A stretch of 64,000 nucleotides of DNA from an uncultured delta proteobacterium (GCA_963745025.1 CAVUWD010000010.1:128001-192000), one strand, 5' to 3'; positions 1 to 26,732 are shown, numbered from the stretch's first letter. Numbers and translations are program-made. The notes: generated by a model not told the origin, from the letters alone.

Positions 1-10
1 CCGCGAAGGG

Positions 11-610
11 GTGAGCTCGCTCGCCGTGCTCGGCCTCCTCGTGCTGCTGGTCTTTCAGTTCGCCTTTCCGGAGCGCCCCACGCCCGAGGCGGCCGCGGCG
101 GCGCTCTGGCTCGCCTTCGTCCTGGCCGGGACCATCGGCGCACAGCGCACGTTCCTGCTCGAGCGCGAGAACGCCTGCATGCACGGGCTGGTGACCGCTC
201 CGCTCGATCCCGCCATGATCTTTGTCGCCAAGATGCTCGGCAACGTGGTGATCCTCACCGTGCTCCAGTTCCTCGTGGTGCCGTTGAGCGTGGTCTTCTT
301 CAATGTCACGCCGACGGGTCATCTAGGCTGGTTGGCCGTGGTCTGTTTCCTCGGCAACGTCGGCTTCTCCGCGGTGACGACGCTGTTTGCCGCGATCTCG
401 GTGCGGATCCGGGCCCGCGAGGTGATGTTGCCGCTGCTCGTCCTGCCGCTCGTCTCGCCGCTCTTGATCGCGGCCGTCAAGGCTTCGGCGCGCTTGCTCG
501 GCGACGGCTCGGTGGCCGAGGTCTCGGTCTGGATCCAGGTGCTGGCCGCGTTCGACGTGATCTTCGCCGCCAGCGGCTGGCTCTTGTTCGAGTACGTGGT
601 TCGGGAATAG
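11..610 (+). CDS. ccmB: Heme exporter membrane protein CcmB (5' end may lie before the window)
   Basis: Hydrophobic ORF with ERENxCxxGL, IFVAKxxGN and REVMLPLLVLP motifs, directly upstream of ccmC. Confidence 0.9.
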   Translation: MSSLAVLGLLVLLVFQFAFPERPTPEAAAAALWLAFVLAGTIGAQRTFLLERENACMHGLVTAPLDPAMIFVAKMLGNVVILTVLQFLVVPLSVVFFNVTPTGHLGWLAVVCFLGNVGFSAVTTLFAAISVRIRAREVMLPLLVLPLVSPLLIAAVKASARLLGDGSVAEVSVWIQVLAAFDVIFAASGWLLFEYVVRE

Positions 611-623
611 AAGCGGAGGGGCG

Positions 624-1319
624 ATGAAACGACTTGGCTCGTGGACGGAGCGGTTGCTCCCCTTGCTCGTCGGCCCGGGAATGCTCGGTTCCCTCTACCT
701 GATCTTCATGGTGGTGCCGACCGAGCGGGTGCAGGGGATCGTCCAGCGGATCTTCTACTTCCATGTTCCGGCGGCCTGGGCCGCCTTTCTCGGATTCTTC
801 GTCGTCGCGATCGCCGGCAGCCTCTTCCTGTGGAGCGGTCGCGCCGCCTACGACCGTGTCGCCCGTGCCGCAGCCGAGATCGGCATGATCTTCTGCACTC
901 TGGTGCTCCTCACCGGCCCGATCTGGGCGCGACCGATCTGGGGGGCGTGGTGGACCTGGGATCCACGCCTCACCATGACGATGATCCTGTGGACGATCTA
1001 CGCCTCCTACCTTCTCCTGCGCGCCTTCGGCGGCGCCGAGGAGGCGGTGGCGCGCTACGCCGCCGTGCTCGGCATCGTCGGGGCGCTCGACATCCCGCTG
1101 ATCATGATCTCGGTGCGGCTGTGGCGCGGCATCCACCCGTCCGTGATCACTGCCCGTCCCGGCGAGGGGGGGCTCGCCGACCCGAGCATGCGCTTCACGC
1201 TCCTCTTCACGGGCCTCTGCTTCGTGCTTCTATTCGTTTGGATGCTGCTCGTCCGGCTGCGGGCGCTGCACGTCGAGGACGAAATCGAGGCCGTTCACCG
1301 CCGGATCCATCCCGCCTGA
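624..1319 (+). CDS. ccmC: Cytochrome c biogenesis heme exporter CcmC
   Basis: RIFYFHVP and WWD motif WARPIWGAWWTWDPRLT; second His in RGIHP; GGAGG RBS. Confidence 0.95.
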   Translation: MKRLGSWTERLLPLLVGPGMLGSLYLIFMVVPTERVQGIVQRIFYFHVPAAWAAFLGFFVVAIAGSLFLWSGRAAYDRVARAAAEIGMIFCTLVLLTGPIWARPIWGAWWTWDPRLTMTMILWTIYASYLLLRAFGGAEEAVARYAAVLGIVGALDIPLIMISVRLWRGIHPSVITARPGEGGLADPSMRFTLLFTGLCFVLLFVWMLLVRLRALHVEDEIEAVHRRIHPA

Positions 1320-1329
1320 GGCGACCTGC

Positions 1330-1479
1330 ATGGAAAACTTCCCGTATCTCTTCTCGGCTTACGCGATCGTGTGGATCGTGCTCTTCGTCTACCTCTTCTC
1401 CCTGGATCGCCGCGGTCGCCGGGCCGAGCACGATCTCGAAGAGCTCCGTAAGCTCTTGCGCGCGAAGGAAGCGAAGTGA
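1330..1479 (+). CDS. ccmD: CcmD family small membrane protein (49 aa, below the ORF-track cutoff)
   Basis: MENFPYLFSAYAIVWIVLFVYLFSLDRRGRRAEHDLEELRKLLRAKEAK: one TM helix plus charged tail, immediately after ccmC. Confidence 0.88.
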   Translation: MENFPYLFSAYAIVWIVLFVYLFSLDRRGRRAEHDLEELRKLLRAKEAK

Positions 1480-1566
1480 AGCCGGTGCCGGTCGCCCCCA
1501 CCCGCCGGCCCTCGCCGATTCGCGCCTCGATGCCGGGCTGATCGCCGAGCGGTTCGCTCGAGCCGC

Positions 1567-2958: not shown

Positions 2959-3101
2959 ACGGGGGCCTCGCGCGCGCACACCGCGCGATGCTCGGCGAGG
3001 TGCCGGCCGGCTTGCCGCATGAGCCGGACGGGAGTTCGCGGAACCAGCTCGCGGCGCAGCGCCCGCAGGAGCAATCGACCGGGAGCGGTCGGGTGGATCA
3101 C
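2955..3101 (-). pseudogene. hemE: N-terminal remnant of uroporphyrinogen decarboxylase (48 aa)
   Basis: LLRALRRELVPRTPVRLMRQAGRHLAEHRAVC resembles the HemE signature LRALxxExVxRTPVWxMRQAGRYLPEYR; overlaps hemL stop (GTGA) and hemY start (ATGA). Confidence 0.85.
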
Positions 3102-4396
3102 GCGGGGCGCGCCTCCCCGAGCGCTTGCAGCGACGCCTGGAGCGCGGCGGCCGCCTGCTCGAGGTGGCTCGTCTCGTGCGCCGTCGAAACGAAGGCGACC
3201 TCGTAGTAGGAGGGCGCGAGCCAGATCCCGCGTTGCAGAAGCAGCGGATGGATCTCCGCGTAGCGCTCCGCGCCGCGCGGGTCGATGCGGTGGTAGGCGC
3301 GGGGCGCGGGAGCCGGCTCGAGCCAGAGCCCGAGCACGGAGCCGACGCGCGAGACGCATCCCGGCACCCCGGCGCGCTCGAACGCGAGCCGGATGCCCTG
3401 CTCGAAGCGCTCGCCCAGATCCTCGAGCCGCGCGTACGCGCCGGGCCGGTCGAGCTCGCGCAGCGTAGCCAGACCCGCCGCCATCGCCAACGGATTGCCG
3501 GAGAGCGTGCCGGCCTGGTAGACGGGCCCGAGCGGAGCAACGTGCCGCATGAGGTCTTCGCGCGCTAGATAGGCGCCGACGGGCATGCCGCCGCCGAGGA
3601 TCTTGCCGAGCGTCACGACGTCCGGCCGGATGCCGGAGATCTCGCTCATCCCGCCCGGCGCGACGCGGAAGCCGCTGATCACCTCGTCGAAGATCAGCAG
3701 AGCGCCGTGTTGGTGCGTCAGCTCGCGCAACGTCTGCAGGAACTCGCGACGCTGCACCAGGAGACCGGCGTTCGCGGGCAGCGGCTCGATCACCACGGCG
3801 GCGATCTCGGCTCCCTTGCGCGCGAAGAGCTCGCGAGCGGCCGCTTCGTCGTCGAGCGGCAGCACCTCCGTCAGCGCCGTGACCTCGGGCGGCACTCCTG
3901 CGGACGAGGGCGTGCCGAAGGTCGCGAGCCCGGAGCCCCCCTTCACGAGCAGCCCGTCGGAGTGTCCGTGGTAGCAACCCTCGAACTTGACGAGGCGCGA
4001 GCGTCCCGTTGCGCCGCGCGCGAGACGCACCGCGCTCATCACGGCCTCGGTGCCGGTCGAGACGAAACGCAACTGGTCGCAGAAGGGGAAGCGCGCGAGC
4101 GCGGCCTCCGCGAGCTCGATTTCCGCGGCACAGGTGGCTCCGAAGGAGAGGCCGTCGCGCGCGGCGCGCGTCACCGCCTCGACCACGGCGGGATGCGCAT
4201 GGCCGAGGATCAACGGGCCCCACGAGCCCACGAAGTCGACGTAGGTGCGACCCTCGGTGTCGGTGACGAGCGCACCGGAGCCCCGAGCGACGAACCGCGG
4301 GTCGCCGCGGACGGCGCGAAACGCCCGCACCGGGCTCGACACGCCGCCCGGCATTACCTTGCGCGCTCGCGCGAACAGATCCCCGGTGTTCTTCAT
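3098..4396 (-). CDS. hemL: Glutamate-1-semialdehyde 2,1-aminomutase
   Basis: MPGGVSSPVRAF, SWGPLILGH, FEGCYHGH, LIFDEV, LGKILGGGMPVG, YQAGTLSGNP; GGAGG RBS before ATG 4396. Confidence 0.97.
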   Translation of the reverse strand: MKNTGDLFARARKVMPGGVSSPVRAFRAVRGDPRFVARGSGALVTDTEGRTYVDFVGSWGPLILGHAHPAVVEAVTRAARDGLSFGATCAAEIELAEAALARFPFCDQLRFVSTGTEAVMSAVRLARGATGRSRLVKFEGCYHGHSDGLLVKGGSGLATFGTPSSAGVPPEVTALTEVLPLDDEAAARELFARKGAEIAAVVIEPLPANAGLLVQRREFLQTLRELTHQHGALLIFDEVISGFRVAPGGMSEISGIRPDVVTLGKILGGGMPVGAYLAREDLMRHVAPLGPVYQAGTLSGNPLAMAAGLATLRELDRPGAYARLEDLGERFEQGIRLAFERAGVPGCVSRVGSVLGLWLEPAPAPRAYHRIDPRGAERYAEIHPLLLQRGIWLAPSYYEVAFVSTAHETSHLEQAAAALQASLQALGEARPA

Positions 4397-4609: not shown

Positions 4610-5743
4610 ATGAGCCAGAACCCCGATTCTCGCCGCTTCTGTCCGTCCTGCCGCGCCCCCGCGGTCTCCCGAGCGAGCTTCTGCGCCGCTTGTGGCGCGG
4701 GACTTCCCGGCGGGTCGACGCCGTGGCTGCGCCCGACCCTGCCCGCCTACGCCGTGCTCGCGGCCTTTTTCGCCGTCGGCCTCGGACTCTGGATCTCGCT
4801 GCTGGCTCCGGGCGGCTCGCCGCAGAGTCCGCCGCTCGCCGAGCAGGACCCCGGCGATAAGCCCTCGGCCGGCCGCGAGCTTCCGTCCGATCATCCTCCT
4901 ATCCCGCTGCCGGGCGACGTCGCGAAGCTCCTCGGCGATCTCGAGCGCCAGGCGGAGGCGGCGCCAAAGGACGTTGCCACCTGGAAGCGACTCGCCGAGC
5001 ACGAGTACCGCGCGGGGCGGGTCGACAAGCAGTACCTGGCGAAGGCCGAGAAGGCGTTCCGCCACATCCTCGAGCTCTCCCCGGATGACCGCGATGCCAT
5101 TCGCGGGCTCGGCAACCTCGACTTCGACCGCGACGATTATGCATCGGCCATCACTCACTACTCCCGCTATCTCGAGCTCGACCCGAAGGACTCCGGCGCG
5201 CGCACCGATCTCGGCACCATGTACCTTTATGCCGGCGATGTCGCGAAGGCGATCGCCGAGTATCAAAGGGTGATTGCCGCCGAGCCCGCCTACTTCGAGG
5301 CGCACTTCAATCTCGGCCTCGCCTATCGCCGCAGCGGCGACGAAGACAAAGCGAAGGAGAGCTTGGAGCGCGCCCGTTCGTTCGCTCCGGATGAGCGCTC
5401 GAAGCAGCAGGTCGCGGCGGCGCTCGCCGGGCCCGGCGGCGCGCCTCCTGCGGGTGGAGCGAAGCTCTCCTTCCAGCAGATGATCGAGCGGGGCCTGCGG
5501 GGGCATCCGATCGTTGGGCCCAAGATCGTCGGCTTCGAATGGCCGGGGCCGACTTCCGGGCAGGTGAAGCTCGACGGCTTCCCGCTGGAGGAGATGCCGG
5601 CGCCGGTCCGCGAGCGGTTCCTCGGTCGGCTGGAGAAGGATCTCGCCGATGCGCGCGCCAAGAGCGGCGAATCGGGCGAGGCGCAGCTCGCGCTCGTCGA
5701 CCGGGCGAGCGGCCGCGTCATGGCCACCGTCGTCGTTCGTTGA
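4610..5743 (+). CDS. Zn-ribbon + TM + TPR protein, CcmI/CycH-like cytochrome c maturation factor
   Basis: CPSC..CAAC N-terminus, TM helix, LPSDHPPI motif, several TPR repeats (ARTDLGTMY, AHFNLGLAY). Confidence 0.7.
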   Translation: MSQNPDSRRFCPSCRAPAVSRASFCAACGAGLPGGSTPWLRPTLPAYAVLAAFFAVGLGLWISLLAPGGSPQSPPLAEQDPGDKPSAGRELPSDHPPIPLPGDVAKLLGDLERQAEAAPKDVATWKRLAEHEYRAGRVDKQYLAKAEKAFRHILELSPDDRDAIRGLGNLDFDRDDYASAITHYSRYLELDPKDSGARTDLGTMYLYAGDVAKAIAEYQRVIAAEPAYFEAHFNLGLAYRRSGDEDKAKESLERARSFAPDERSKQQVAAALAGPGGAPPAGGAKLSFQQMIERGLRGHPIVGPKIVGFEWPGPTSGQVKLDGFPLEEMPAPVRERFLGRLEKDLADARAKSGESGEAQLALVDRASGRVMATVVVR

Positions 5744-7992
5744 ACGTTTTCACGATCCGGAATTCCGACCGCGCGGTGCTGCTGTCGGGCGGCGTCGCGA
5801 CGGCGCTCGTGCTCGGCGGCATCGTCGGGATCGGCCTGTTCATCCGCTGTTCGTTCTTCCGCAACTTCGTCAATCCCGAGGGTGGGTTCTTCTTTTACAG
5901 CGTCGACGCCCACGATCACCTGCGGCGCGTCATGCTGGGGATTCAGGCGTTCCCGGCCGTGCCCGTGCGTGATTCGTACATGGGCTATCCCGTTGGCACG
6001 GGCCAGATCTGGTCGCCGCTCTTCGATTACATACTCGCCGCCATCGCGGTTGTCGCGTGCCGCTCGCGGGCGGCGGTCGAAACATTGTGCTTCTTCGCCA
6101 ATCCCGCCTACGCCGGCCTGACGCTGTTGCTGCTCTTCGTCGTCGCGCGCAGGTTGTTGAGCCACACGCCCGCCGCGCTGGCCGCCGCCTTTCTTCTCGC
6201 GCTCTCGCCTGGGCACATCTCTTACACTCACCCGATGAACTTCGACCACCATGTTTTCGAGCCCATAGCCATTCTCGTCCTCACGGCCCTCGTCTTCCTG
6301 GAGCGGGACGATCGGTTGAGCATCGCCGGCACGTGCGGGGTTGCCGTCGCGCTGGTGATCACCATTTTCATGTGGCGAGGCAGCACCATCTACTGGGGGC
6401 TCACCTTCCTGCGCGTGCTGATCTGGTCGCTGGCGGCGCGTCGACCGCGGCTCGCCCGCGAGTATGCCCGTGGCTTTGCGGCGGCGGCCGTGGCGCTCGC
6501 TGTCTTCGTCTGGATGGATCCGTGGGGCAACGCGCGCAACGTCTCTTTCGGGATCGTTTCCGGTTTTCACGTCATCCTGCTCGGCTTGGCGGCGCTATGC
6601 CTCGGCGTCGTAGGCCGTGCGGCCGACCGCCGGCAGAGCGCCATCGCGCTGGCCGCGGTTGCCCTGGGGGTCCTGCTTTCACTGACACTGTCGCCGGTCC
6701 GCGAGGTCCTCCACAGCCTCTCGGCCGGTCTGGCCTTCTTCGGCCGCAGCGGAGACCCATGGTTGGCTTCCAACAGTGAATTGAAAGGCACCTTTTATCA
6801 CGGAGGCTTTTTCGCCGGCGCCACGTACCTGACCTTGTACTGGTTCCTCGCCCCGGGCGCGGTTGCGCACGCCTTCGGGCGCTGGCTGCGCGCGGAGGGA
6901 AGCGACAGGCAGCTCTTTGCCTTCTGCTTCATCGGTCCCTTGTTCGCCATGGGGTTGGTGCTGCGCTACGTGCACATCGCCGGTCTGGCGACGGCCTTTG
7001 CCGGCGGGTACCTGTTCGCACTGGCTTGGGAGAAATGGCGCCAGCCCATGGCCAGAGCCGGAGCCGTCGCATCGCTGCTCCTGCTGCTGCTGCCCTCTCT
7101 GCCTCATTACCAGGACACCCTGCAAAGCCGACTACCCGATCCCATGCGAATGGGGCTCTTTGGTTCCAAAGGCGTGCTGACCTGGCTGCGGGACAACACG
7201 CCCAAGACCGCGCACTATCTGGATCCGATCGCGGTGCCGGAATACGGCGTCATGGCGGAGTGGGACCTGGGGGCCATGATCTATCAGGTGGCCGAGCGAC
7301 CGGCCGTCTCTACGGCTTTCGGATGGGAGACGCACGGATTCTACGAAGAGAACACCTTCATGGCGACGACCGAGGCGGAGGTCGCCGAGCAAATTCTGAA
7401 CGACAATCGGGTGCGGTACGTGCTGCTGCGGGCGTATCAGGCGCGGGCGATGCACTTCGCCATCGCCGAATACGGCGTCAAGGAAGGGAAGATCCCACGC
7501 GCGCTGGTCGGCACGTATCAGCCCGACAAATCAATATACACTCGGCTCATGTACAATGACGGCGCGGCCTATCGCTCGGGCGCAGAGATCGTGCCCGGTC
7601 TCGAGCAGTACCGCCTGCTCTACGAATCCGACTACCTCGCCAGCGACGACCCGGGCCACGGGCTCAGCTACTACAAGGTGTTCGAGTTCGTTCGAGGCGC
7701 GCGCGTCCTAGGAACGGCCACGCCAGGAAGCGACGTCGCCCTCGAACTGCCTCTCCTGACCTCCCGGCGTCGACTCCTTCGATACACCAACTGGACGAAG
7801 GCGACGCAAGACGGCCGCTTCATGCTCACCCTGCCGTACGCGACCAACGTGGCGCAGGGCGACACCGCGGCACAGGGTGCGTACGCGATCGTCGACGACA
7901 ACGGGCGCAGAGCCAGCCTGGAAGTGACGGAAGCGGATGTCGTCTCCGGCAACTCGCTCAGCGTGATACTGGCCGAGCCCGAGGGGAGATGA
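5740..7992 (+). CDS. STT3/PglB/AglB family oligosaccharyltransferase
   Basis: Multi-TM N-terminus with VDAHDHLRR, FDHHVFE and SNSELK motifs; soluble C-domain with VMAEWDLG (WWDxG equivalent); TTG start overlapping upstream TGA. Confidence 0.85.
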   Translation: MNVFTIRNSDRAVLLSGGVATALVLGGIVGIGLFIRCSFFRNFVNPEGGFFFYSVDAHDHLRRVMLGIQAFPAVPVRDSYMGYPVGTGQIWSPLFDYILAAIAVVACRSRAAVETLCFFANPAYAGLTLLLLFVVARRLLSHTPAALAAAFLLALSPGHISYTHPMNFDHHVFEPIAILVLTALVFLERDDRLSIAGTCGVAVALVITIFMWRGSTIYWGLTFLRVLIWSLAARRPRLAREYARGFAAAAVALAVFVWMDPWGNARNVSFGIVSGFHVILLGLAALCLGVVGRAADRRQSAIALAAVALGVLLSLTLSPVREVLHSLSAGLAFFGRSGDPWLASNSELKGTFYHGGFFAGATYLTLYWFLAPGAVAHAFGRWLRAEGSDRQLFAFCFIGPLFAMGLVLRYVHIAGLATAFAGGYLFALAWEKWRQPMARAGAVASLLLLLLPSLPHYQDTLQSRLPDPMRMGLFGSKGVLTWLRDNTPKTAHYLDPIAVPEYGVMAEWDLGAMIYQVAERPAVSTAFGWETHGFYEENTFMATTEAEVAEQILNDNRVRYVLLRAYQARAMHFAIAEYGVKEGKIPRALVGTYQPDKSIYTRLMYNDGAAYRSGAEIVPGLEQYRLLYESDYLASDDPGHGLSYYKVFEFVRGARVLGTATPGSDVALELPLLTSRRRLLRYTNWTKATQDGRFMLTLPYATNVAQGDTAAQGAYAIVDDNGRRASLEVTEADVVSGNSLSVILAEPEGR

Positions 7993-8105: not shown

Positions 8106-9503
8106 GTGGCAGCCCCGCACCGCTTCACCAAGCCGCTGGCCGCCGGATTCTTTTGTTGCGCCGTGATTCTACGGGCGTTGCTGTGTTGGGCGAACCCTCC
8201 GGCGAACTCCTTTGACGATCATTTCGCGCCGATCTTCATGACAATGAAGTCCGGCGTCATTCCCCCGAAAGACGCCTGCTATCAGTGTTACCATCCGCCC
8301 GTCTTCTACGGCATCTCCGCGCTGATTGGTAACGTGGCTGTTCGTGCGGGCGCCACGCTACCGCAGTTGATGAAACTCCTGCAATCCGTCTCCTGTGTTT
8401 ATGGGATATTGACCGTCGGTGTTTGCTACCTGATTGTCAGGAAATTTCCGCTCTCCGACTTCTCGATGTTGATATCGTTTGGGACCGTCTGCTTCCTGCC
8501 TCGTCATATCTACATGTCGGCAATGCACTCGAATGACACCATATCATATTTGTTCGTGGCGCTTGCGATATACATTGCCGTCGTTGTGATTGAGCGGGGA
8601 TTTCCCCCGCTGGATGCCGGCGTCTTGAGCGTGATCCTCACGATCGCGGAATTTACCAAGTACACCGCTTTGGTGGTTCTCCCGGTGGCAGTGACGGCCT
8701 TGTTTTCGGCTGTTCGCCACCGGCTGATCGTTTCGCGAAAAAGGGCTGTCTGCTTGGCCCTCGGCATGCTGGCGCTGCCCCTGACGACTTTAGCGGGTTA
8801 CATGCTGTCGAATGTGCGGCACTACGACAGCCCGCTGCCCTCGAACGTCGCGATCTATGATTCGACCGCCCACAGGCCCCGTGATGCGGGGGGAATCAGT
8901 TTCTTTACGTTCAAGCCATGGGAAGACATGCGGACCCCGATGCTGGCGCCGGGGAAGCTGCATTCCTTCTGGACGCTGATTTACAGCGGGATGTGGTTCG
9001 ACACCGAGCCGTATTTTCTGCGCTTCCTCGATGCAGACACCGGCTGGTGGAAGCATTATTACCGTTGGTACCGGGGAGAGGAGGGCTATCCAGGTGAAAA
9101 TCCTTCCTTGTCTCATTTCACGAGCCTGGCGGGTTTCGGGCTGATCGGGATGGGGCTGGTTCCCTTGGTGTTGATTCTGCTCGGCTTCGTTTGTTGTGTC
9201 ACCGGGAGATGGAGCGGGGTGAAGCAAGCCACCGTTTCGCAACGGATCAGCATGAGCATGTTCCCCGTGCTGGCGGTATTCAATGCGGCGGGAGTCATTG
9301 CGCTGACCATGAAATTGCCGGTCTACAACTCGATGAAAGCGTCCTACTTTCTGAACTCGACGCCCGCGTTCATGGTGTTCCTCGGCCTGGGGGTGATGCG
9401 TTGTGAGCGGAATGCAACCGTGAAGCGGATCGTTGCGGTGACCTTTGGTGGGTTGTTCACGCTCGCGACCCTGCATATTCTCCACATCGTCCTTGCCATC
9501 TAG
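8106..9503 (+). CDS. GT-C fold (ArnT/PMT, GT39-like) membrane glycosyltransferase
   Basis: Polytopic membrane protein with FDDH, YHPPVFY, HSND and FTKYT motifs; visibly lower GC than flanks. Confidence 0.65.
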   Translation: MAAPHRFTKPLAAGFFCCAVILRALLCWANPPANSFDDHFAPIFMTMKSGVIPPKDACYQCYHPPVFYGISALIGNVAVRAGATLPQLMKLLQSVSCVYGILTVGVCYLIVRKFPLSDFSMLISFGTVCFLPRHIYMSAMHSNDTISYLFVALAIYIAVVVIERGFPPLDAGVLSVILTIAEFTKYTALVVLPVAVTALFSAVRHRLIVSRKRAVCLALGMLALPLTTLAGYMLSNVRHYDSPLPSNVAIYDSTAHRPRDAGGISFFTFKPWEDMRTPMLAPGKLHSFWTLIYSGMWFDTEPYFLRFLDADTGWWKHYYRWYRGEEGYPGENPSLSHFTSLAGFGLIGMGLVPLVLILLGFVCCVTGRWSGVKQATVSQRISMSMFPVLAVFNAAGVIALTMKLPVYNSMKASYFLNSTPAFMVFLGLGVMRCERNATVKRIVAVTFGGLFTLATLHILHIVLAI

Positions 9504-17336: not shown

Positions 17337-17356
17337 TGGCCTCTACGCCGCCGCTT

Positions 17357-17492
17357 GCCGCGTCGCGAGCGCCAGGTCTACCACGATGCCGTCTTTTGGG
17401 GCATGGAAGGCTTCGAGAAAGAAGCTCGTGGCGGACAAGCCAGGCGCGAGCCCGCCGCGTTCAAGTCACAGAAGAATTTCGCATCGAGGCTA
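17357..17492. repeat. Dispersed repeat B, copy 1 (~136 bp)
   Basis: Closely similar to 49124-49259 (GAGCGCCAGGTCTACC..GATGCCGTCTTTTGGGG..GGAAGGCTTCGAGAAAGAAGCTCGTG..ATCGAGGCTA). Confidence 0.85.
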
Positions 17493-17659
17493 GGAAGAAG
17501 CTCCTCATCGCCATGGCCCGAAAGGTGATCGCGTTGGACTTCAAAGAGCTCGAGGCGATGATGGCACTCGGCATCGCCACGCTCATCGCAGCGCTCGCCG
17601 CGCGCTACTATCTGATGAAGCGCGCGGGCGCCGCCCCACGTAGCTCTCTGCTCGATTGA
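17493..17659 (+). pseudogene. C-terminal fragment of a PsiE-family membrane protein
   Basis: LLIAMARKVIALDFKEL..LGIATLIAALAARYYLMKR; 5' part replaced by repeat B. Confidence 0.5.
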
Positions 17660-17678
17660 GGAGTCGGCCGGGGCCGCC

Positions 17679-18101
17679 ATGCCGCCGTTACGCGCCGGAT
17701 CGCTCTGGCTCTACGTACATCCCGTCCTGGCATTGGTCGGCATCGGGCTACTGCTGTACGCCGCCAGCCTCGGTCTGGCCACCCGGCAGCGGCGGCGCGC
17801 CAAGGCAGCGCTTCTTCGCCGCCACGCCCGCCTCGGACCATACGCCTACGCCCTCATCGTCCTGAGCTGGGTGCTCGGGTTGGGGTCAGCTTGGTGGGGG
17901 CGCAGCGACCTCGAGTTGGCGGCGAGCGGTCATTTCAAAGCCGGCTGTTATCTCGTGCTACTGCTCAGCGCCACGGCGCTGCTGTCGCGGTGGATGGATC
18001 GCGTGCCCGGCGGCCGAACCATCCATCCGCTCCTCGGCGCGGCGGCGGCGTTGCTGGCCGGGTTCCAAATCTTCCTCGGCCTCCAGCTCATGCCGAAGTA
18101 G
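17679..18101 (+). CDS. DUF4079-like 4-TM membrane protein with His residues
   Basis: YVHP, RRHARLG, SGHFKAG, TIHPLLG in four helices (cytochrome b561-like pattern). Confidence 0.6.
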   Translation: MPPLRAGSLWLYVHPVLALVGIGLLLYAASLGLATRQRRRAKAALLRRHARLGPYAYALIVLSWVLGLGSAWWGRSDLELAASGHFKAGCYLVLLLSATALLSRWMDRVPGGRTIHPLLGAAAALLAGFQIFLGLQLMPK

Positions 18102-18330: not shown

Positions 18331-18759
18331 TCACTTCTTCAACGTTCGCATGTAATTGACGACGTCCCACATCTCTGTCGGCTCCATGAGCTTCTTGCCC
18401 GCAGGCATAGGCTTCTTCCCCTCCGCGATCTTCCAGTAGAGCTCGCCGTCGCTCTGCTTGACGATCGACGGATCCGTGAGGACCTTCATCCGATCCTTCT
18501 CTTCCTTCTTCATCTCGGCCACCTTCTTGCCGTCGCTCTGGCCGTTGGCCCCGTGACAATCCGTGCATTGGGCGTCGTACGCCTCCTTGCCGGCCGCGAG
18601 AGACTCCTCGTTCGTCGCTTGGGGGTTCTTTTTCTGAGCCTCGGCGGCGGGCGCGGTCCACTCTTTCTCCGCGGCGATGATCAGCGAAGCGCCGAAGGCG
18701 GTGGTTCCGACGATCGTCAGGATGGCCAGCCAACTCTGTTGACGAATAGATCTCACCAT
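18331..18759 (-). CDS. Monoheme cytochrome c
   Basis: Signal peptide, KKNP, CTDCH, SDGELYWKI..KPMPA (Met ligand). Confidence 0.9.
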   Translation of the reverse strand: MVRSIRQQSWLAILTIVGTTAFGASLIIAAEKEWTAPAAEAQKKNPQATNEESLAAGKEAYDAQCTDCHGANGQSDGKKVAEMKKEEKDRMKVLTDPSIVKQSDGELYWKIAEGKKPMPAGKKLMEPTEMWDVVNYMRTLKK

Positions 18760-19109
18760 TTCTTCTTCCTTTCAGGTTGCCAATCGTTGGACGATGACGC
18801 GCGAATCTCGTCTCCTCGATCGAACCGGCGGAGGACGCGCCCGCGCGAAATTGTCGCGGCCGGTCAAGTAGCCGTTCAGCGTAGACTCTTTTCTTCGCGA
18901 ACCGTCTGCCACATCGCACTCCGCGCAGATGCAAGAGCCGTGCGTGATATGGGCCACTCTCGTAGCAACGATGATTGCGGCATTCAAGGTTGAGAAAACG
19001 AACGGAGCTTCTTAGATCCGGGAATTTGCGTCCTCCGATTTTCCCGAAGAGCGGAACCAAGGGGAACCTCCGCCACGTTGTTTCGTGTTCGGACGCGCGA
19101 AGCTGGCGG

Positions 19110-19125
19110 TGGCACACCAAATGCT
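19110..19125 (+). promoter_or_regulatory. Sigma-54 -24/-12 promoter candidate
   Basis: TGGCACACCAAATGCT (GG-N10-GC) just upstream of the tetraheme/FeS/NrfD operon. Confidence 0.55.
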
Positions 19126-19138
19126 CGCGGGGATTGCC

Positions 19139-19860
19139 GTGTCGCTACGCAAGTACGGTTTCTATCTGGGTCTCGGCTTGTTCATGGGCATTTCGCTGGC
19201 GATCCTCGCTTTCGAACTCTCGGGCCGGAGGGGATCGGCGATGGAGAAGACGCCGGCCGCCATGCCGCGCACTCCCGGCGATTTCCGTTCGCTCTTCGCC
19301 TTCAACCCCTTGAAGGGCCTGGGAGAGGGTAGCGGCGACGTCCACGCCAAGATGCCGCCGTTCAGCGAAGGCACTTGGCCCTGTTCGGATTGCCACAATG
19401 GCAAGAAGCTGAAGGACAATCCGATCCGGCGCGTTCTGGTGAAAGAACACTCGGGCATCACGCTCCACCACGGTGAAGAAGATGAGAGTCTGTGGTGCCT
19501 CGATTGTCACGATTTCAAGAACCGGGATCGGCTCCGTCTGGCGGGCGGTACGCTCGTCGAATTTGAGGAGTCCGATCGCCTCTGCGGCCAATGCCACGGA
19601 CGGATCCACCGCGACTGGAAAGCGGGGGTTCACGGGCAGCGCACCGGCTTCTGGAACGGCCCAAGCGCTACCTCCTGTGCCTGAACTGTCACTGGCCGCA
19701 CTCGCCGCGCTTCGACGCCCTCGAGCCGCTGCCGCCGCCCGTGCGTCCCGAGCAGATCGGGCTCGGGCTCTTGCGGGCGAAGGCCGGCGGGGTCGAGCGC
19801 CCCGCCGATGCCCCAGCCGCCAGCGAAGGAGCAAAGACCGCCGAAGGAGCCAAGCAATGA
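19139..19860 (+). CDS. Membrane-anchored tetraheme cytochrome c (CbcS-like); frameshift at ~19662
   Basis: TM helix, CSDCH, CLDCH, CGQCH, RDWKAGVHGQRTGFWNG, then in the next frame KRYLLCLNCHWPHSPRF; start uncertain. Confidence 0.8.
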
Positions 19861-20759
19861 GCGAGCAGGACGGCGCGGAGGGAATCAGCCGGCGGGAGGC
19901 CCTCACTTTGGGCACGGCCACGCTCGCGGCGCTGTTCGTTTCGGCGTGCACCGGCGAGTCGATCGAGGCGTTCTTCCAGAAGCGGTTCGACGAGCTGTCT
20001 CCTGACGAGGTCAAGAGAGTGCTGGCGCGGCTCGAAGCCAGGTACACTCAGCGCTTCGGCAAGAAGGTCACGGTCGATGACACGCCGGCGGAGGAGGGCG
20101 TGGTCTTCGGGTACGGGCTGGACCTCTCCCGCTGCATCGGTTGCCGGCGCTGCGTGTACGCGTGCGTCAACGAGAACAACCAATCGCGAGACCCGCAGAT
20201 CCAATGGATCCGGGTGCTCCGGCAGCAGCGCGAAAAGGGCGTCGTCATCGAAGGAGCCGAGCAGTATTACGACGCCAAGAAGGTGCCGGAAGAGGGCTTC
20301 TTCTACATCCCGGTGCAGTGTCAGCAATGTGAAAATCCCCCCTGCACCAGGGTCTGCCCCGTCGGCGCCACGTGGAAGGAAAAGGACGGAATCGTCGTCA
20401 TCGACTACGACTGGTGCATCGGTTGCCGATGCTGCGTCGCCGCGTGCCCGTACGGGGCGCGTCACATGAACTGGGGCGACCCGTTCCTCCCCGCCAAAGA
20501 GCTGAACCCGAACACCCATTACCTCGGCAATCGCCCGCGCCCTCGGGGCGTCGTCGAGAAGTGCACGTTCTGCATCCAGCGCGTCCGCAAAGGACGCTAT
20601 CCGGCGTGCGTGGAGATCTGCCCGGTCGGCGCCCGCAAGTTCGGGAACCTGCTCGACCCGAAGAGCGAGATCCGATACCTGCTCGAGCACAAGCGGGTCC
20701 TCGTGTTGAAAGCCGAGCTCAAGACCGAGCCGAAGTTCTTCTACTTCTACGGGATCTGA
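19857..20759 (+). CDS. 4Fe-4S dicluster protein, NrfC/DmsB family (CbcT-like)
   Basis: Tat-like SRREAL; CIGCRRC, CQQCENPPCTRVCP, CIGCRCCVAACP, CTFC..CVEICP. Confidence 0.92.
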   Translation: MSEQDGAEGISRREALTLGTATLAALFVSACTGESIEAFFQKRFDELSPDEVKRVLARLEARYTQRFGKKVTVDDTPAEEGVVFGYGLDLSRCIGCRRCVYACVNENNQSRDPQIQWIRVLRQQREKGVVIEGAEQYYDAKKVPEEGFFYIPVQCQQCENPPCTRVCPVGATWKEKDGIVVIDYDWCIGCRCCVAACPYGARHMNWGDPFLPAKELNPNTHYLGNRPRPRGVVEKCTFCIQRVRKGRYPACVEICPVGARKFGNLLDPKSEIRYLLEHKRVLVLKAELKTEPKFFYFYGI

Positions 20760-20780
20760 CGCGGCGATAGGGACAAAATC

Positions 20781-22037
20781 GTGAACCAATTCCGCTTCCT
20801 CGTTCAGGCGCTCCGCTACGCATTTCGCGGCGGGCTGTTCTATTACCTCTGGCTCGCATTTCTCGTCGCTCTGGTGGCGTGGGGTGGCGCTGCCTATCTC
20901 GAGCAGCTGAGGCGCGGGCTGATCGTCACGGCGATGCGCGACCAGGCGTCGTGGGCGTACTACATCGGCAACTTCACGTTCCTCGACGGCGTGGCGGCCT
21001 CGGCGGTGATCGTCGTGATCCCTGCGTTCATCTACGACTGGAAGCCGATCAAGGAGGTCGCGATCCTCGCGGAGATCCTGGCGATCAGCGCCATCGTGAT
21101 GTCCTTGCTCTTCGTCATCGTGGACCTGGGTCGGCCCGACCAGCTGTGGCACTTCTACAAGCTCAACGTTCCCTCGTCCCTGCTCGCCTGGGACGTCTGC
21201 GTCCAAAACTTCTATTTCATGGTGAACATCGTCATCGTCGCGTACGTGCTCTATCGCACCTATAACGGCCGGCACGTCCGCGAGGGTTTCTTCGTGCCCC
21301 TGGTGCTGCTCTCGATCCCGGCCGCGATCGCGATCGTCGCGGTCACCGCCTTCATCTACAACGGACTTGCCGCACGTCCGTTCTGGAATGCATCGATTCT
21401 GGCCCCCCGATTCATCGCGAGCGCTTTCTGCTCCGGCCCGGCGATCCTCCTGATCCTCTTCCAGATCCTTCAGCGCACGACCAAGCTCGAGATCAAGGAC
21501 GAGGCCATCTGGAAAATCGCCGAGCTCATGGCCTACGCCATGTTCGTGAACCTCTTCCTGCTCGGTGCCGAGGTCTTCAAGGAGGTCTACTCGAGGACCG
21601 AGCACATGATTCACTTCAACTACCTCTTCTGGGGCATCGGCGGTCATCGGGCTCTCGTCCCCTACGCGTGGGCAGCAGTCGCGGCGAGCGCGACCGCTTT
21701 TGTCCTCCTGCTGATCCCGGCGACCCGCACGAACCCGTTCACCCTGAACCTCGGGTGCCTGTTGATCTACTCGGGGGTCTACATCGAGAAGGGAATGGGG
21801 CTCGTGATCCCCGGCCTCACTCCGGACACGCTCGGCGAGATCTACGAGTACGTGCCGACGTGGTACGAGGTGCGGATCGGTGCGGGCATCTTCGCGATCG
21901 GATTCCTCGTCTACACGATCATCACCAAGATCGCCGTCGGAATCCTGATCGGAGAGCTGCGCACCGAAGCGGCGCGCGCCGCCGAGATCGCGGAAGCGGC
22001 CGGCCGTCGCCTGAAGCCCTCGCTGCACTCGGTCTGA
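20781..22037 (+). CDS. NrfD/PsrC family quinol-binding membrane subunit (CbcU-like)
   Basis: WAYYIGNFTF, VDLGRPD, SLLAWD, RPFWNAS, IEKGMGLVIPG, YVPT. Confidence 0.92.
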   Translation: MNQFRFLVQALRYAFRGGLFYYLWLAFLVALVAWGGAAYLEQLRRGLIVTAMRDQASWAYYIGNFTFLDGVAASAVIVVIPAFIYDWKPIKEVAILAEILAISAIVMSLLFVIVDLGRPDQLWHFYKLNVPSSLLAWDVCVQNFYFMVNIVIVAYVLYRTYNGRHVREGFFVPLVLLSIPAAIAIVAVTAFIYNGLAARPFWNASILAPRFIASAFCSGPAILLILFQILQRTTKLEIKDEAIWKIAELMAYAMFVNLFLLGAEVFKEVYSRTEHMIHFNYLFWGIGGHRALVPYAWAAVAASATAFVLLLIPATRTNPFTLNLGCLLIYSGVYIEKGMGLVIPGLTPDTLGEIYEYVPTWYEVRIGAGIFAIGFLVYTIITKIAVGILIGELRTEAARAAEIAEAAGRRLKPSLHSV

Positions 22038-22689: not shown

Positions 22690-25600
22690 ATGATAGCGAG
22701 AACGAAGACCCGGTCGGTGAAAGCCCCGCTCGTGACCGCACTGACCGTCTTGGTCATGCTCCTGGCCACTGGTCCGGTGGGCGCCTTGTACCCGCCCAAC
22801 GGCGCGAAGCCGACTGGGGACTCCGCTGATCCTTACATGAACCCGGATGACGGCATGTGCGTCGTCGGCGTCGCAGCCGACGGCACGATGCGCGTCGATT
22901 GGTCGATCACGAACGCGCGGGATTGCGTTGCGTATACGACCGGGCTCGGCACGATGACGGGGGTCGACATCACCACTTCGAGCACCTGCGGTGCTCTCGG
23001 AACCGGGTTGTGCAACACCTCGGCACTTTGCACTCGACCGAACGGAAGCGCGGTCTGGAATGCCGCGGCATTGAAGTGTTTCGATGTCTCTAGCTGCCTG
23101 AGCGCGGGCGCCGACAACGCGACCTGCACGGCAGCCGGTGTACCGTTGCCGTGCTGTACCGGCAACGGGACCGGAACGTGCGGCGTGAACGACGGCTACA
23201 GGCACGCCTTCGCCACGACCAACACGTGCGTCAACGCTGCCGACCCCACGACCGCCATCAGCCTGGTGGATCTCGACCGCACGCTGCCCATGTGCCAATC
23301 CAAGGGCGGGACGACGCTGTCGCCGATCCCAGGGACGTGCGTGGCGTACGGCTGGGTGTACAGGAACAGGAACGCCGATGGCCCCCCCCCGACGCTCCCG
23401 GTTACGGGGGTTGGCGTCGGACACGACCGACGGCGTGCAGGCCAGCGCCGGTCTGGGCTTTTGTTACACGGCGATTCGAATGACCGGAGGTGGCTATACT
23501 CCGCCTAGCCCCATTACCCCCACCTCCTGTCCATCCTGGCACAACAGTCCGACCGGCAACGCGGCCGAGTGGCCCGCTTGCCAGAGTAGCACCACGGGAT
23601 GCCAGACCCCGCAGTCGTACGATGCCGGCCTGGGTTGGTCATTCTCGACCCCCAATTGCGTGTATAACTTCGGCATACTGGGCACCCAAAATGCAAACGT
23701 AACCAACGCCGCTGGTGTAGTGACCCCAGCGGGTACACTTGTGGATCTCACCGGCATCGACAACCAAGGCGATTGTCTCGCAGCAGGCTATTCCTGGGAC
23801 AACTGGCTCCCCTTCCCTGGCCCGACAGGCATCAGGACCAGTGCCAGTGGAGGAGATTACGCCGGGATGCCCCCAGGTCCGCCCGCCGCCCAGATCGTGA
23901 AATTCGATGCGCTCACTCCGATCGAAGGCGGCGGGGGCGAATTCTTCAGCGGCACCGGCTTCAACTGTCTGAGGTGCCATGCCGATCAGTCGAGGGCGTT
24001 CCAGGAGCGGAACAAGCCCGGCTTCGTCAAGACGAGGCACCAGAAGGCCGGCGACGCGATCGGCAAGCCGTTCCAGCCCTTTTTCAACGATGCCGACTCG
24101 TCTTGGGGGCTGCAGGGCGTTCAGTGTACAATGTGCCATAGCACCGCGAGGCCTTCGCAGGACGACTTGATTCAGGTTGTCCCCGCGGGAGTGGTTGGCC
24201 CGCCTGCCGCTGGCGCCCCCAAGAGCGCCACGGGCCACAACCAGACCGAATACGGGGCGCACTTGCTCGACATCTGCTACACGTGCCACGGCACCCCGGC
24301 TCAACCCCCCCTCGACCCAACAATCGTAAACCCGGCGGAGCACATCCCGGTGTCCAATGGGGACTTCAGATTGACATTGAATAATCCCGGACCGGCGACC
24401 TCCAATCTTTTCAATAACATACCGCCGCTACCAGTACCGCCAAACGTGGGGGGGCTGGCGCCAATCATGAACCAGTTCCTGAACAGCCCGCATGCACAGT
24501 ACGCGGGCTCGAGCCTCAAGGTCGACATCGGGAACAAGGACAACTACGGTAGCACCTTCGAGGGCTATGTCTGCCGGACGAGCAGTACTGTCGGCGGAGG
24601 CTCCATCATCACCACGGTCTACAGGAACGGCGTGGCGGAGAAGATTCCGAACGTCGACAGCACGGACAACCCGGCTTGCACGAACGCGGCCGACGGGTCG
24701 GCGACGAGCGGCGCCGGCGGCTTCTGGGTGAAGGACGGCGAAACTAGCCCAGGTGTTCCCACCGATACTGCGCAGGGCAACTGCATGACCTGCCACGACG
24801 TCCACTGGGCGCTGGCTTCCACCGATAAGGACAAGCCCTGCATTCAATCCAGAGGGCGAGCCGTTCCGGAGAGAATGCACCACCTGCCACGTGAACCCCG
24901 GAACGTCGGCGTCGGGCGCGCCGCAGATCGACCTGGCGACGATCAACCACCTGAAGACGGCGGGCACGCCACTCGAGAATTGGGCGACCGATCCCGACTC
25001 AGCGTGCGAGACCTGCCACATGCCGAAATCAGGCGGTGAGTCGAGTAACACCTCGCCCATGCACCTCTGGCGGATCAATACCGACCCGAATTACCACACG
25101 ATGGGAGCCACGGAGGCCAACCCGCGCCCGATCGGGGAAGGCTACACCGACGCGGCGTGGGTGGACATCGAGCACGCGTGCGGTCAGTGCCACGGAACCG
25201 ACGGGAATCGACGGCGCGATATCTGCACGTGGACTGCGCGCCCCCTCGTAGCACGGAAGTGCTGGCGACGGTCGCGAAGGGCATGCATAGCGCCACGGCC
25301 GTTTCGTACTTCGTGAACTTCAACATCGGCCCGGTCAGTGGACTGCAAGTCCCCGTCACCGCCACCGTCGACTGCGGCGGGGCGACGTGCCCGAGCTTCA
25401 CGTACGACTGGGACTGGGGAGACGGCACGCAGGCGCTGGGCGCTACCGCGAGCGAGACCCACACGTACGCGAGCGGAGGATCGAAATCGATCACGTTGAC
25501 CGTGCTATTGAACGGCAGTAGTGTGGGTTCCGCTACCCGGAGCGTCAGGTTGTTCAATCCGGATCTCCCCCCGACCGCCCTGGGCCACTGCAGGTACCGT

Positions 25601-25864
25601 GCGGACAGGCGGCAGATGAAGCTCGTGGACAAGTCCACTGACGACGGCCCGGACGCGGATACCCTTCCGGGCGACGGCGAGGCCACCCTGCAGATCGTCG
25701 TCGATTGGGGCGACGGCAGCACGAAGACGATCACCAAGCAGGGCGCGATCGTGAAGCATATCTATCTGCTCCCGGGAACCTACACGGTCACCCACACCGC
25801 GATCGACGCGAAGCTGCAAAAGGACGTGAGGCACTGCAACCCGACCACCGTCACTGGACCGTGA
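22690..25864 (+). CDS. Large secreted heptaheme cytochrome c with Cys-rich N-terminus and C-terminal PKD domains; split by about three frameshifts (~23420, ~24836, ~25220)
   Basis: GGAGGAG RBS and signal peptide; CLRCH, CTMCH, CYTCH, CMTCH, CTTCH, CETCH, CGQCH across frames; YDWDWGDG and VDWGDGS PKD motifs. Confidence 0.8.
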
Positions 25865-25928
25865 GCTTTGCTCTGACAAGCAGATGAACGAAATGCGAAT
25901 AACGAAGGCCTACGGAGGGAGAATCGAG

Positions 25929-26732
25929 ATGAAAGCGTTCAAACCAAGCGCGGCGCTGGCAGTGCTGGTCATCGTAGGCTGGGTGTCCCAGGTTCCCTCC
26001 GCCCTAGCCTACACCGGAACGTACGTGCCGGGTGTGGGAATCAACGAAACGCCGCACGACCTCGGCCACCCGCACAATGGAATGAACTACGTTGCGGTGC
26101 CGACAGATCCGCAGCAGAGAATCTGCATCTTCTGTCACGCGCCGCACAATACGTACAGGATCGCCGGGACGCCGGGTAACGGCCCGGTAGCCCCTGCGGC
26201 CTTCAACTACCTGCCGCTGTGGAACCACACGCTGCAGGCGAACACCGCATACATGATGTACGACGCCGGGCCCGGCGCGCCGACGGTCGGACCGAAGCGC
26301 ACGAATGCCAAGGACGTCGGCATGACCCCCGGCAGCGTCTCGCTCCTCTGCCTGAGCTGTCATGACGGAAGCGTCGCTGTGAATTCCTGGGGCAATACCA
26401 GTCAGGCGACGCAATCGGTCGGTAATACGTTCATGACTTTGGCATACCAGATCGGTACGAGTCAGTCCCTGATCAACCACCATCCGATCGGGTTCAACTA
26501 CAACGCGGTGCAGGCGGGAGACATCGAGATCCGCGACGCGAGCACCGTGCAGCTGACGGTGGATACGTTCGTCAGCGACCACCTCTACAACCAAAACCTC
26601 GAGTGTGGCACTTGCCATTCGGTGCACAACAAGGGGAACACGGGCGAGAAGCTGCTGTGGAGGAGTGACCAGCGCAGCGAGCTCTGCTTGACCTGCCACG
26701 ACAAGGGTTTCTACACCCCGCCGGCAGGGTAA
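25929..26732 (+). CDS. OmcE-like tetraheme cytochrome c
   Basis: Signal peptide; TPHDL, ICIFCHAPHN, PLWNH, SLLCLSCHDG, HHPIGF, LECGTCHSVH, LCLTCH: motif order of Geobacter OmcE as recalled. Confidence 0.85.
   Translation: MKAFKPSAALAVLVIVGWVSQVPSALAYTGTYVPGVGINETPHDLGHPHNGMNYVAVPTDPQQRICIFCHAPHNTYRIAGTPGNGPVAPAAFNYLPLWNHTLQANTAYMMYDAGPGAPTVGPKRTNAKDVGMTPGSVSLLCLSCHDGSVAVNSWGNTSQATQSVGNTFMTLAYQIGTSQSLINHHPIGFNYNAVQAGDIEIRDASTVQLTVDTFVSDHLYNQNLECGTCHSVHNKGNTGEKLLWRSDQRSELCLTCHDKGFYTPPAG

Follow-up and report, generated by a model that had tools for sequence, protein, structure and literature searches.

A putative omcE-type extracellular electron-transfer cluster with a 12-heme OmcE-domain cytochrome in an uncultured delta proteobacterium

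The window analysed here is a stretch of 64,000 nucleotides (contig C10:128001-192000) of G000, a metagenome-assembled genome (MAG) of an uncultured delta proteobacterium, which comprises 20 contigs totalling 5.65 Mb (completeness 92.65, contamination 7.6). Its first 27 kb include two divergent gene blocks which, taken together, probably constitute an omcE-type extracellular electron-transfer (EET) cluster with a putative filament, a reading supported directly by the homologies of the genes, the modelled fold of a beta-barrel and conserved synteny. The first block is a minus-strand operon of six genes at 9.6-16.7 kb, whose members overlap or nearly abut in the order NHL2 (first), barrel, NHL1, 12-heme cytochrome, c7a and c7b; the second, on the plus strand at 22.7-26.7 kb, comprises a 7-heme cytochrome carrying PKD domains, together with the candidate filament subunit, an OmcE-like tetraheme cytochrome (Table 1). 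Work on OmcE-type filaments has until now dealt with Desulfuromonadia; here the same machinery is found in loci from 43 more species genomes, and, if it works, electron exchange with solids would seem to be within reach of abundant uncultured bacteria of soil and wetland. The core cluster is already published, so the value of this example lies in two variants: an OmcE-like domain within the 12-heme protein, which could make filament anchoring and electron feeding testable, and an STT3-family enzyme, a candidate filament glycosylator that is recognisable and can be expressed and assayed.

Genes were called from lists of open reading frames (ORFs), third-position G+C and a codon-usage frame plot, with Pfam searches of 32 ORFs and NCBIfam searches of 27. 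A preliminary description, made from the sequence, had proposed that the 27 kb form one island for a glycosylated nanowire, holding seven c-type cytochromes with about 34 hemes; all the genes that it listed were present at about the places given, and the count is exactly 34 heme motifs in seven genes, namely three each in c7b and c7a, 12 in the 12-heme protein (10 CxxCH and two Cx3-4CH), one in a monoheme cytochrome, four in the tetraheme of a quinol module, seven in the 7-heme/PKD protein and four in the OmcE-like protein. The host genome otherwise has few multiheme cytochromes: ORF pieces with at least three CxxCH number 16 in the whole 5.65 Mb, and because seven of these lie in this region, the concentration of cytochromes is not due to chance.

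This core is a member of a known cluster type, since its inventory equals that of the minimal omcE cluster of Desulfuromonadia, given in the available parts of the published account as two multiheme cytochromes, two beta-propeller lipoproteins, OmcE and a large beta-barrel (PMC13712944, mBio 2026). All six genes are present, as two divergent halves 6 kb apart, and the candidate subunit shares with the Desulfuromonadia proteins (structures 7TFS and 9YUQ) four CxxCH motifs and four heme-ligand histidines. GT39-like and TPR genes adjoin the cluster, an arrangement shared with freshwater Geobacter. The differences are that the two halves diverge with a quinol module between them, that a single AglB/STT3 homologue and one GT-C enzyme replace the 15-70 glycosylation genes (GT families 2, 4 and 39, TPR proteins and others) which follow many omcE clusters according to the same partial text (PMC13712944), and that the 12-heme protein carries an OmcE-like domain.

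Conservation was assessed by scanning one genome per species, which yielded 43 loci with a relative of the barrel, and by tblastn of 26 window proteins or pieces against these loci within 10 kb of the barrel, a search in which some low-identity matches are cross-matches between paralogues. NHL1 and NHL2 each matched in all 43 loci (some of the NHL1 matches being weak cross-matches), the barrel in 41, the 12-heme cytochrome in 37 and the OmcE-like protein in 38, a full-length OmcE-like ORF being recovered in 28; two C-terminal pieces of the big 7-heme/PKD cytochrome matched in 26 and 28 loci. Almost always the genes share one strand and run big cytochrome, OmcE, NHL, barrel, NHL, 12-heme. The inverted arrangement of the window, with the pair of big cytochrome and OmcE beside NHL2, recurs in a few loci and in G234, a genome of the same class; in the window itself a 6-kb insert with the quinol module parts the two halves. 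Hence the earlier expectation that the gene set is conserved together holds for the core, in the same order across 43 species genomes. Within a sample of 400 genomes from the host phylum, the barrel was found in only three others.

Record titles place the 43 loci in Candidatus Binatia, Acidobacteriota (Thermoanaerobaculia and Terriglobia), Nitrospirota, Myxococcales and others. By contrast, the available text of PMC13712944 reports OmcE homologues in five phyla (Thermodesulfobacteriota, Pseudomonadota, Aquificota, Campylobacterota and Nitrospirota), of which only Nitrospirota is shared with the titles of our loci, and the strings 'Acidobacteriota' and 'Binat' do not occur in that text. A preprint describes porin-multiheme clusters of peat Acidobacteriota and Verrucomicrobiota in general terms, its available text using 'OmcE' once and never 'NHL' or 'barrel' (10.64898/2026.05.27.727921). 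One Binatia-titled locus (L011:16955-22029; L numbers denote related loci and G numbers genomes) contains an additional OmcE-like gene (46% identical), behind which lie more NHL-like and 12-heme-like genes, which suggests duplication of part of the cluster.

The stand-alone tetraheme protein matched the OmcE filament of Geobacter sulfurreducens in a sequence search of the PDB, over residues 13-232 of the 232 in chain 7tfs_A (E 2.3e-16), and also chain 9yuq_N (E 1.4e-13), an entry taken to be the Desulfuromonas soudanensis OmcE bundle, which the portions available of PMC13712944 describe while naming 9YUQ once. Residues 67-263 of the 12-heme ORF matched the same two chains (9yuq_N, E 2.4e-25; 7tfs_A, E 5.4e-24), and the two window proteins find each other at E 2.4e-12; the previous assertion that two of the cytochromes are OmcE-like is thus correct at sequence level. 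The 12-heme protein consists of an OmcE-like tetraheme domain at about residues 24-220 and a C-terminal part with eight hemes. In the tetraheme protein, the four CxxCH and the histidines H76, H106, H218 and H266 (numbering of the 300-residue ORF) align with histidines of 7TFS. These four histidines and two further ones are invariant in all 31 OmcE-like sequences, each of which has four CxxCH, and the 12 heme motifs are kept in all 33 long-cytochrome sequences, the window's own being counted in both sets. The four extra histidines of an OmcE-type subunit complete bis-histidine ligation, one of them serving the heme of a neighbouring subunit, as stated in the available parts of two papers (PMC9473688, PMC13712944). 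Of the features used to recognise a nanowire subunit, those of sequence and gene context are found here: four CxxCH, full-length similarity to OmcE, four extra histidines, and a barrel and propeller lipoprotein nearby, the barrel and both NHL genes lying within 10-13 kb of the OmcE-like gene in the window and adjacent to it in related loci. The 7-heme protein piece at 23189-25036 returned no match among PDB sequences at E up to 1.

The 678-residue protein of the operon has no match to a Pfam or NCBIfam family, and its 78 homologues likewise have no Pfam domain on record, those with names being called hypothetical proteins. An AlphaFold2 (AF2) model built with a 40-row alignment (pLDDT 86.1) is all-beta, with about 30 long antiparallel strands and an inserted beta domain at about residues 384-466. 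When this model was compared with the PDB by Foldseek, MtrB of the Shewanella Mtr complex was the first match (6R2Q_B, E 3.9e-9, query TM-score 0.35, 9% identity), followed by the FimD usher, TonB-dependent receptors and LptD, so that the leading matches are all large outer-membrane barrels. By its model the protein is a large outer-membrane barrel, in agreement with the original call. Both NHL proteins have N-terminal signal peptides, with a lipobox LAGC in NHL2 and an atypical lipobox in NHL1. We envisage that the barrel and the two propeller lipoproteins would house or anchor the 12-heme cytochrome across the outer membrane, and that the OmcE-like tetraheme would be exported and then polymerise, or at least stack, on the surface in the manner of OmcE in Geobacter and Desulfuromonas. 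Both the formation of a filament and the position of the 12-heme protein in the barrel are what we infer from this evidence.

The same proteins could instead make up a porin-cytochrome conduit without a filament, in which barrel, NHL proteins and 12-heme cytochrome form a wire like MtrCAB or the Geobacter Pcc systems, and the OmcE-like and 7-heme/PKD proteins are non-polymerising cytochromes of the surface or periplasm. As in those systems, a large barrel gene lies beside multiheme cytochromes; MtrB is the top structural match of the barrel; and the 12-heme protein has Pfam similarity to domain II/IV of MtrC/MtrF (53 bits). Polymerisation of the OmcE-like protein, moreover, is deduced rather than seen in the sequence evidence, and NHL propellers adjoin non-filament outer-membrane cytochromes in Desulfovibrio ferrophilus (PMC5815863). 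On the other side, the OmcE-like protein agrees with the context by which the authors of PMC13712944, in the text available, delimit nanowire subunits, having a barrel and propeller lipoprotein nearby; all OmcE heme ligands are kept; and a predicted head-to-tail docking, described below, joins heme-1 and heme-4 motifs. The window barrel also differs from MtrB in its lack of Pfam or NCBIfam homology, and at the TM-score obtained kinship is not established. To our knowledge, Mtr systems have neither NHL propellers nor an OmcE-like subunit, whereas this cluster has two such propellers and the subunit. We therefore regard a conduit alone as an unlikely account of these genes.

Several observations nevertheless weigh against an omcE-type filament cluster. 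The TM-score of the barrel to MtrB is low. An AF2 model of the 12-heme protein (32-row alignment) reached a pLDDT of 36.2 and is unusable, so that its OmcE fold is a matter of sequence similarity, the OmcE-like domains attaining pLDDT 85-90 in a complex model. OmcE-like tetrahemes have a wide distribution and need not polymerise in every case; they had to be filtered by context in the published survey, as far as its available parts describe it (PMC13712944). The c7 pair, the quinol module, the oligosaccharyltransferase (OST) and the GT-C enzyme are not conserved parts of the cluster, and four frameshifts, all in cytochrome genes, could be real. Finally, the support is genomic and predicted throughout, and a filament and electron transfer in this organism are putative. 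An omcE-type cluster remains, in our judgement, the probable identity of the two blocks.

How OmcE filaments are anchored, or where they start, is a question raised in PMC13712944, the available parts of which report no anchor or tip candidate in OmcE operons. A candidate is suggested by the 12-heme protein, which begins with an OmcE-like domain in all 33 12-heme sequences, the window's counted; proteins of 339-1082 residues with an OmcE-like domain number 5089 at E 1e-8 or better. A complex prediction for residues 34-225 of the 12-heme protein and the mature OmcE-like protein gave an ipSAE of 0.68, the best of three controls giving 0.00. Of 157 solved complexes 116 attain the mark applied to ipSAE, as do two of 215 mismatched pairs, a calibration that is rough only, as custom alignments were used here. 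Three runs agreed in at least 87% of contacts, with partner pLDDT of at least 88, and set heme motif 1 of the 12-heme protein (C65) facing heme motif 4 of the OmcE-like protein (C252), a modelled arrangement in which the units follow one another head to tail as in a filament. Since structures of OmcE filaments exist (7TFS, 9YUQ), the docking pass may reflect likeness to them, and a predicted interface is no proof of binding. On this scheme the N-terminal domain of the 12-heme protein would replace a subunit, its heme 1 stacking on heme 4 of a protomer, and the 8-heme tail would pass the barrel, inside or alongside it, and reach the c7 proteins of the periplasm. If true, the idea would explain the attachment of OmcE filaments and their electrical connection to the cell.

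With the 12-heme protein as filament base we link a second proposal, and for the two we claim no more than a modest chance: that certain bacterial AglB/STT3 enzymes, a rare sub-clade whose WWDYG motif is degenerate, serve specifically to modify extracellular multiheme cytochromes. OmcE of G. sulfurreducens is extensively glycosylated, according to the available part of PMC9473688. The STT3 homologue of the window could supply the sugar coat of a nanowire by a route unlike the glycosyltransferase block of Geobacter, possibly at a non-canonical acceptor site. Like AglB and PglB (STT3 family, GT66), it matches the Pfam models STT3 (36.7 bits, cut-off 24.5), AglB_core-like (40.6, cut-off 27) and AglB_L1 (64.2, cut-off 23.6), and has the conserved acidic, histidine and arginine residues of the membrane domain: D123, H127, R129, D145, D163, H237/H238/E241, D406 and E414, the first five being invariant in the clade alignment. 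We take these to correspond to the catalytic positions of PglB or AglB. The C-terminal domain of the enzyme can be aligned with the Archaeoglobus fulgidus AglB domains 3VGP and 3VU0; the ORF is open from 5539, homologues starting near 5740. The enzyme differs from AglB and PglB in the following respects: it scores below cut-off with TIGR04154 (233 bits against 450); EWDLG stands where 3VGP has WWDYG, only W575 and G578 of the motif being invariant across 15 clade members; the clade is rare, with 21 homologues found; and the gene is paired with one for a zinc-ribbon/TPR protein.

The genomic distribution of the enzyme is uneven. STT3 relatives at 30-35% identity occur elsewhere in six of the 43 barrel-locus genomes, with no multiheme ORF in the flanks examined, and in the 400-genome phylum sample STT3 was found in three genomes and the barrel in three, with zero overlap. 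STT3 is not a general companion of the OmcE-type cluster. Closer relatives were sought in metagenome contigs with a 14-row alignment, which gave 12 loci, five of them on short, uninformative contigs. In L061/L062, which represent one organism of an unrelated lineage (99.5% identical overlap, 55% G+C), an STT3 gene 47-49% identical has the OmcE-like gene on one side and NHL2 on the other; in L063 (43% G+C) the relative is accompanied by ORFs of 12, 13, 5 and 3 hemes, with a TPR-GT41 protein upstream, and in L066 by a 12-heme ORF and a TPR-GT41 protein. In L058/L059 an enzyme 64% identical lies among housekeeping genes (RecG, a MazF-like toxin and CarAB). A more distant relative in G331 (29% identical) is within 10 kb of 21-, 12- and 4-heme ORFs, with a GT-C gene downstream, and eight further loci with distant relatives (24-36% identity) had no multiheme ORF in their flanks. 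STT3 thus lies beside or inside multiheme loci in four of the five informative lineages at 43% identity or more, and in five of 14 overall. In G000, chance adjacency is unlikely, since only about nine multiheme ORFs lie outside the region in 5.6 Mb. Compact ORFs of 306-320 residues with 10-12 CxxCH were also observed (L063:7687-8649, L066:2911-3831, L079:8867-9787); in L063 and L066 these adjoin the STT3 relative and TPR-GT41 proteins, and in G220 one of them lies about 4 kb from the OmcE-like gene of that genome.

The stop of the zinc-ribbon/TPR gene overlaps the likely start of STT3, implying translational coupling, and an 89% identical copy is present in L057. On contig C6 a paralogue with 47% identity has another PMT_2 GT-C gene at a distance of 2 kb (C6:447578-452436, L080), a hint that TPR proteins and GT-C enzymes may pair recurrently. 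Because of the coupling to STT3 and the position of this paralogue, we read the protein as a glycosyltransferase partner; the TPR matches beside STT3 in L063 and L066 were rejected as orthologues of it, being TPR-GT41 proteins. It does not resemble the cytochrome maturation factor of its former label, TPR_CcmH_CycH scoring 27 bits against a cut-off of 42. The GT-C gene has a G+C of 0.593 over 8-10 kb and a low codon-usage score, and its slot in L057 is occupied by a 193-residue protein with a CarboxypepD_reg domain, so that it looks like a recent insertion or replacement. N-X-S/T sequons show no enrichment: OmcE-like proteins of the two STT3-linked lineages have three each and the other 29 proteins 0-6. 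Filament glycosylation is a lead only, the WWDYG motif of the enzyme being degenerate and the sequons lending no support. The TPR-STT3 pair and the strain-variable GT-C form a lineage-specific add-on, which may glycosylate proteins of the cluster.

The whole 27 kb is very unlikely to be one island with its own heme supply, maturation and N-glycosylation, all dedicated to a glycosylated nanowire. The case for such an island is that L057, a close relative (STT3 94% identical), keeps the succession hemY-hemL-TPR-STT3-...-c7b-c7a-12-heme-NHL1-barrel-NHL2; that STT3 relatives stand inside or beside multiheme loci of other lineages; and that Geobacter combines omcE clusters followed by glycosylation genes, GT39 and TPR proteins included, with a glycosylated OmcE, as the partly available sources have it (PMC13712944, PMC9473688). 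Against it, STT3, GT-C, TPR, ccmB, ccmD, hemY, hemL, c7a and c7b matched in none of the 43 loci, ccmC and the quinol module in one each (the latter L016) and the monoheme cytochrome in three; the six of these genomes with STT3 relatives hold them away from multiheme ORFs as far as the examined flanks extend, and those of the phylum sample are not its barrel genomes; and the GT-C is strain-variable, the WWDYG motif degenerate and sequons not in excess. An STT3 homologue and a GT-C are indeed present, as had been noted in favour of N-glycosylation, and a survey for OST, OmcE, NHL and barrel together, which had been proposed, recovers the last three in most of the 43 loci and the OST within 10 kb of the barrel in none of them, yet finds it in L057 and L061/L062.

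The idea of a dedicated heme supply is not supported. In this genome ccmB, ccmC and ccmD are the only copies, CcmF-like and CcmE genes are on contig C11, a third Cytochrom_C_asm protein is on contig C16, and no second, cluster-linked copy of the Ccm maturation genes was found. Because these genes are single-copy, with ccmE and ccmF on another contig, they are part of the cell's only System I and not an island-specific supply. Both hem genes have paralogues, that of hemY only 31% identical and that of hemL 50%. The ccm and hem genes are probably housekeeping neighbours of the cluster.

The c7 pair and the quinol module would complete a path to the membrane. Both c7 proteins exceed the cut-off of TIGR04257 (nanowire_3heme; 60 and 69 bits against 40), c7a has a signal peptide and an LVAC lipobox, and in the series 12-heme, c7a, c7b each start overlaps the preceding stop. 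Downstream of the 12-heme gene, the 26 informative related loci contain the c7 pair in no case and a 13- or 14-heme cytochrome in nine, a point of difference from the window. In L008, L009, L010, L011, L015, L016, L019 and L027 this cytochrome (435-505 residues, stop to stop) directly follows the 12-heme gene, and the window and L057 carry the c7a/c7b pair at the position that it occupies in those eight. The c7 trihemes would carry electrons through the periplasm, and the inserted tetraheme/FeS/NrfD module would link them to the quinone pool. An orthologous module adjoins the cluster in L016, so that a quinol link is plausible, with one independent recurrence; we infer both this link and the direction of electron flow. 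As in DsrMKJOP, Qrc and the Geobacter Cbc modules, the NrfD-family subunit is DsrP-like, passing that model; the 4Fe-4S subunit resembles DsrO or QrcC, and a small multiheme cytochrome is present. DsrJ is a triheme, whereas the cytochrome here has four hemes; the locus has neither DsrM nor DsrK, its DsrO-like score is below cut-off, and the module sits inside an EET cluster and not with dsr genes. A full DsrMKJOP set is not encoded here, the locus holding only the DsrP-like and DsrO-like subunits and the tetraheme.

Two of the seven cytochrome genes are interrupted by a total of four frameshifts within 6 kb. The tetraheme gene of the quinol module is split near 19660, its fourth CxxCH being read in the next frame; the 7-heme/PKD gene has three shifts, one at a C9 run (about 23380-23450), one at about 24832-24846 and one at a C5 run (about 25196-25238), and so passes through four successive frames. 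Orthologues of the latter in L010, L038 and L077 are single ORFs with seven CxxCH, and the tetraheme orthologue in L016 is one ORF with four. Because the assembly consists of long contigs (20 in all) and C runs lie in or beside three of the four sites (C9, C5 and one three-C run), we read the shifts as long-read consensus errors. Contigs from four sequencing runs (X1-X4), short and shallow and aligned at 90% likeness or more, did not settle the matter: none spans the shifts near 19660, 24840 and 25200, and X1 depth at 23419 shows no indel. These gaps, and the confinement of all four changes to cytochrome genes, could point to a decaying cluster, in which the shifts are real, both genes are pseudogenes and the system is non-functional in this strain. 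One X3 contig, from a near relative, however lacks a single base within the zone of the first shift, at 23419, the coding signal stays high through each successive frame of the split genes, and all seven heme motifs of the 7-heme/PKD gene are intact. Together with the homopolymers, this makes decay highly improbable.

Table 1. Coordinates and supporting evidence of features in the first 27 kb of the window
Feature	Position	Strand	Evidence
ccmB	..-610 (cut by window start)	+	Pfam CcmB 81.6 bits
ccmC	624-1319	+	Pfam Cytochrom_C_asm 102.5 bits
ccmD	about 1330-1479	+	TIGR04391 CcmD family 44.3 bits
hemY	1567-about 3000	-	TIGR00562 230 bits
hemL (hemY next in transcription direction)	3098-4396	-	NF000818 569 bits
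Zinc-ribbon / single transmembrane segment / TPR protein	4610-5743	+	TPR and zinc-ribbon Pfam matches
AglB/STT3-type GT-C oligosaccharyltransferase homologue	5740-7992	+	Pfam STT3, AglB_core-like, AglB_L1
PMT_2/GT39-like GT-C glycosyltransferase	8106-9503	+	PMT_2 24.5 bits (cut-off 26.1); Atlas PMT_2/GT39 0.99
c7b triheme cytochrome	9615-9959	-	Pfam Cytochrome_C7; TIGR04257
c7a triheme cytochrome, lipoprotein	9956-10621	-	Pfam Cytochrome_C7; TIGR04257; LVAC lipobox
12-heme cytochrome, 618 residues	10618-12474	-	PDB matches 9yuq_N, 7tfs_A in N-terminal part
NHL1 beta-propeller, probable lipoprotein	12449-13531	-	Pfam NHL 73 bits
Outer-membrane beta-barrel (by model), 678 residues	13528-15564	-	AF2 and Foldseek; no Pfam or NCBIfam match
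NHL2 beta-propeller lipoprotein, LAGC lipobox	15571-16707	-	Pfam NHL 51 bits
ORF with PsiE-like match	17336-17659		Overlaps dispersed repeat
DUF4079 / cytochrome b561-like membrane protein	17679-18101	+	Pfam
Monoheme cytochrome c	18331-18759	-	Pfam
Tetraheme cytochrome of quinol module	19085-19860, frameshift near 19660	+	Frame analysis
4Fe-4S protein	19857-20759	+	DsrO model 182.7 bits, under cut-off 200
NrfD-family membrane subunit	20781-22037	+	DsrP model 381 bits (cut-off 350)
Secreted 7-heme cytochrome, C-terminal PKD domains	22690-25864, four frame pieces	+	Pfam, heme motifs
OmcE-like tetraheme cytochrome, candidate filament subunit	25929-26732	+	7tfs_A E 2.3e-16

Upstream of the window a HemN-like gene and a ccmA-like ABC ATPase precede the ccmB-ccmC-ccmD series. 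The interval between the two blocks (17-22 kb) holds intergenic repeats, the DUF4079/b561-like protein, the monoheme cytochrome c and the tetraheme/4Fe-4S/NrfD module. A paralogue of the monoheme cytochrome, 69% identical, adjoins a 9-heme ORF of 649 residues at C16:623263-625966, a second, smaller cytochrome locus in G000. Past 26.8 kb the genes belong to unrelated metabolism or encode PqqE- and PqqB-like proteins and PAS histidine kinases. In particular, positions 42647-45885 and 46111-51892 carry PqqE-like (radical SAM/SPASM) and PqqB-like (metallo-beta-lactamase fold) genes and PAS/GAF histidine kinases, which fits an early remark on pyrroloquinoline quinone (PQQ) synthesis and a FixL-like sensor; no link between these genes (42647-51892) and the cytochrome cluster was seen.

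Searches of window positions 1-30000 with Rfam at gathering thresholds gave no match. Two dispersed repeats, of about 100 nucleotides (17143-17248) and about 135 nucleotides (17357-17493), lie between the blocks, and repeat sequence also stands at about 49124-49259 in the window; the PsiE-like ORF may be no gene, given its overlap with the longer one. The 135-nucleotide repeat is present at 14 other genomic places on nine contigs, seven of the matches being full-length at 88-94% identity, and one copy lies just past an 8-heme ORF on contig C8.

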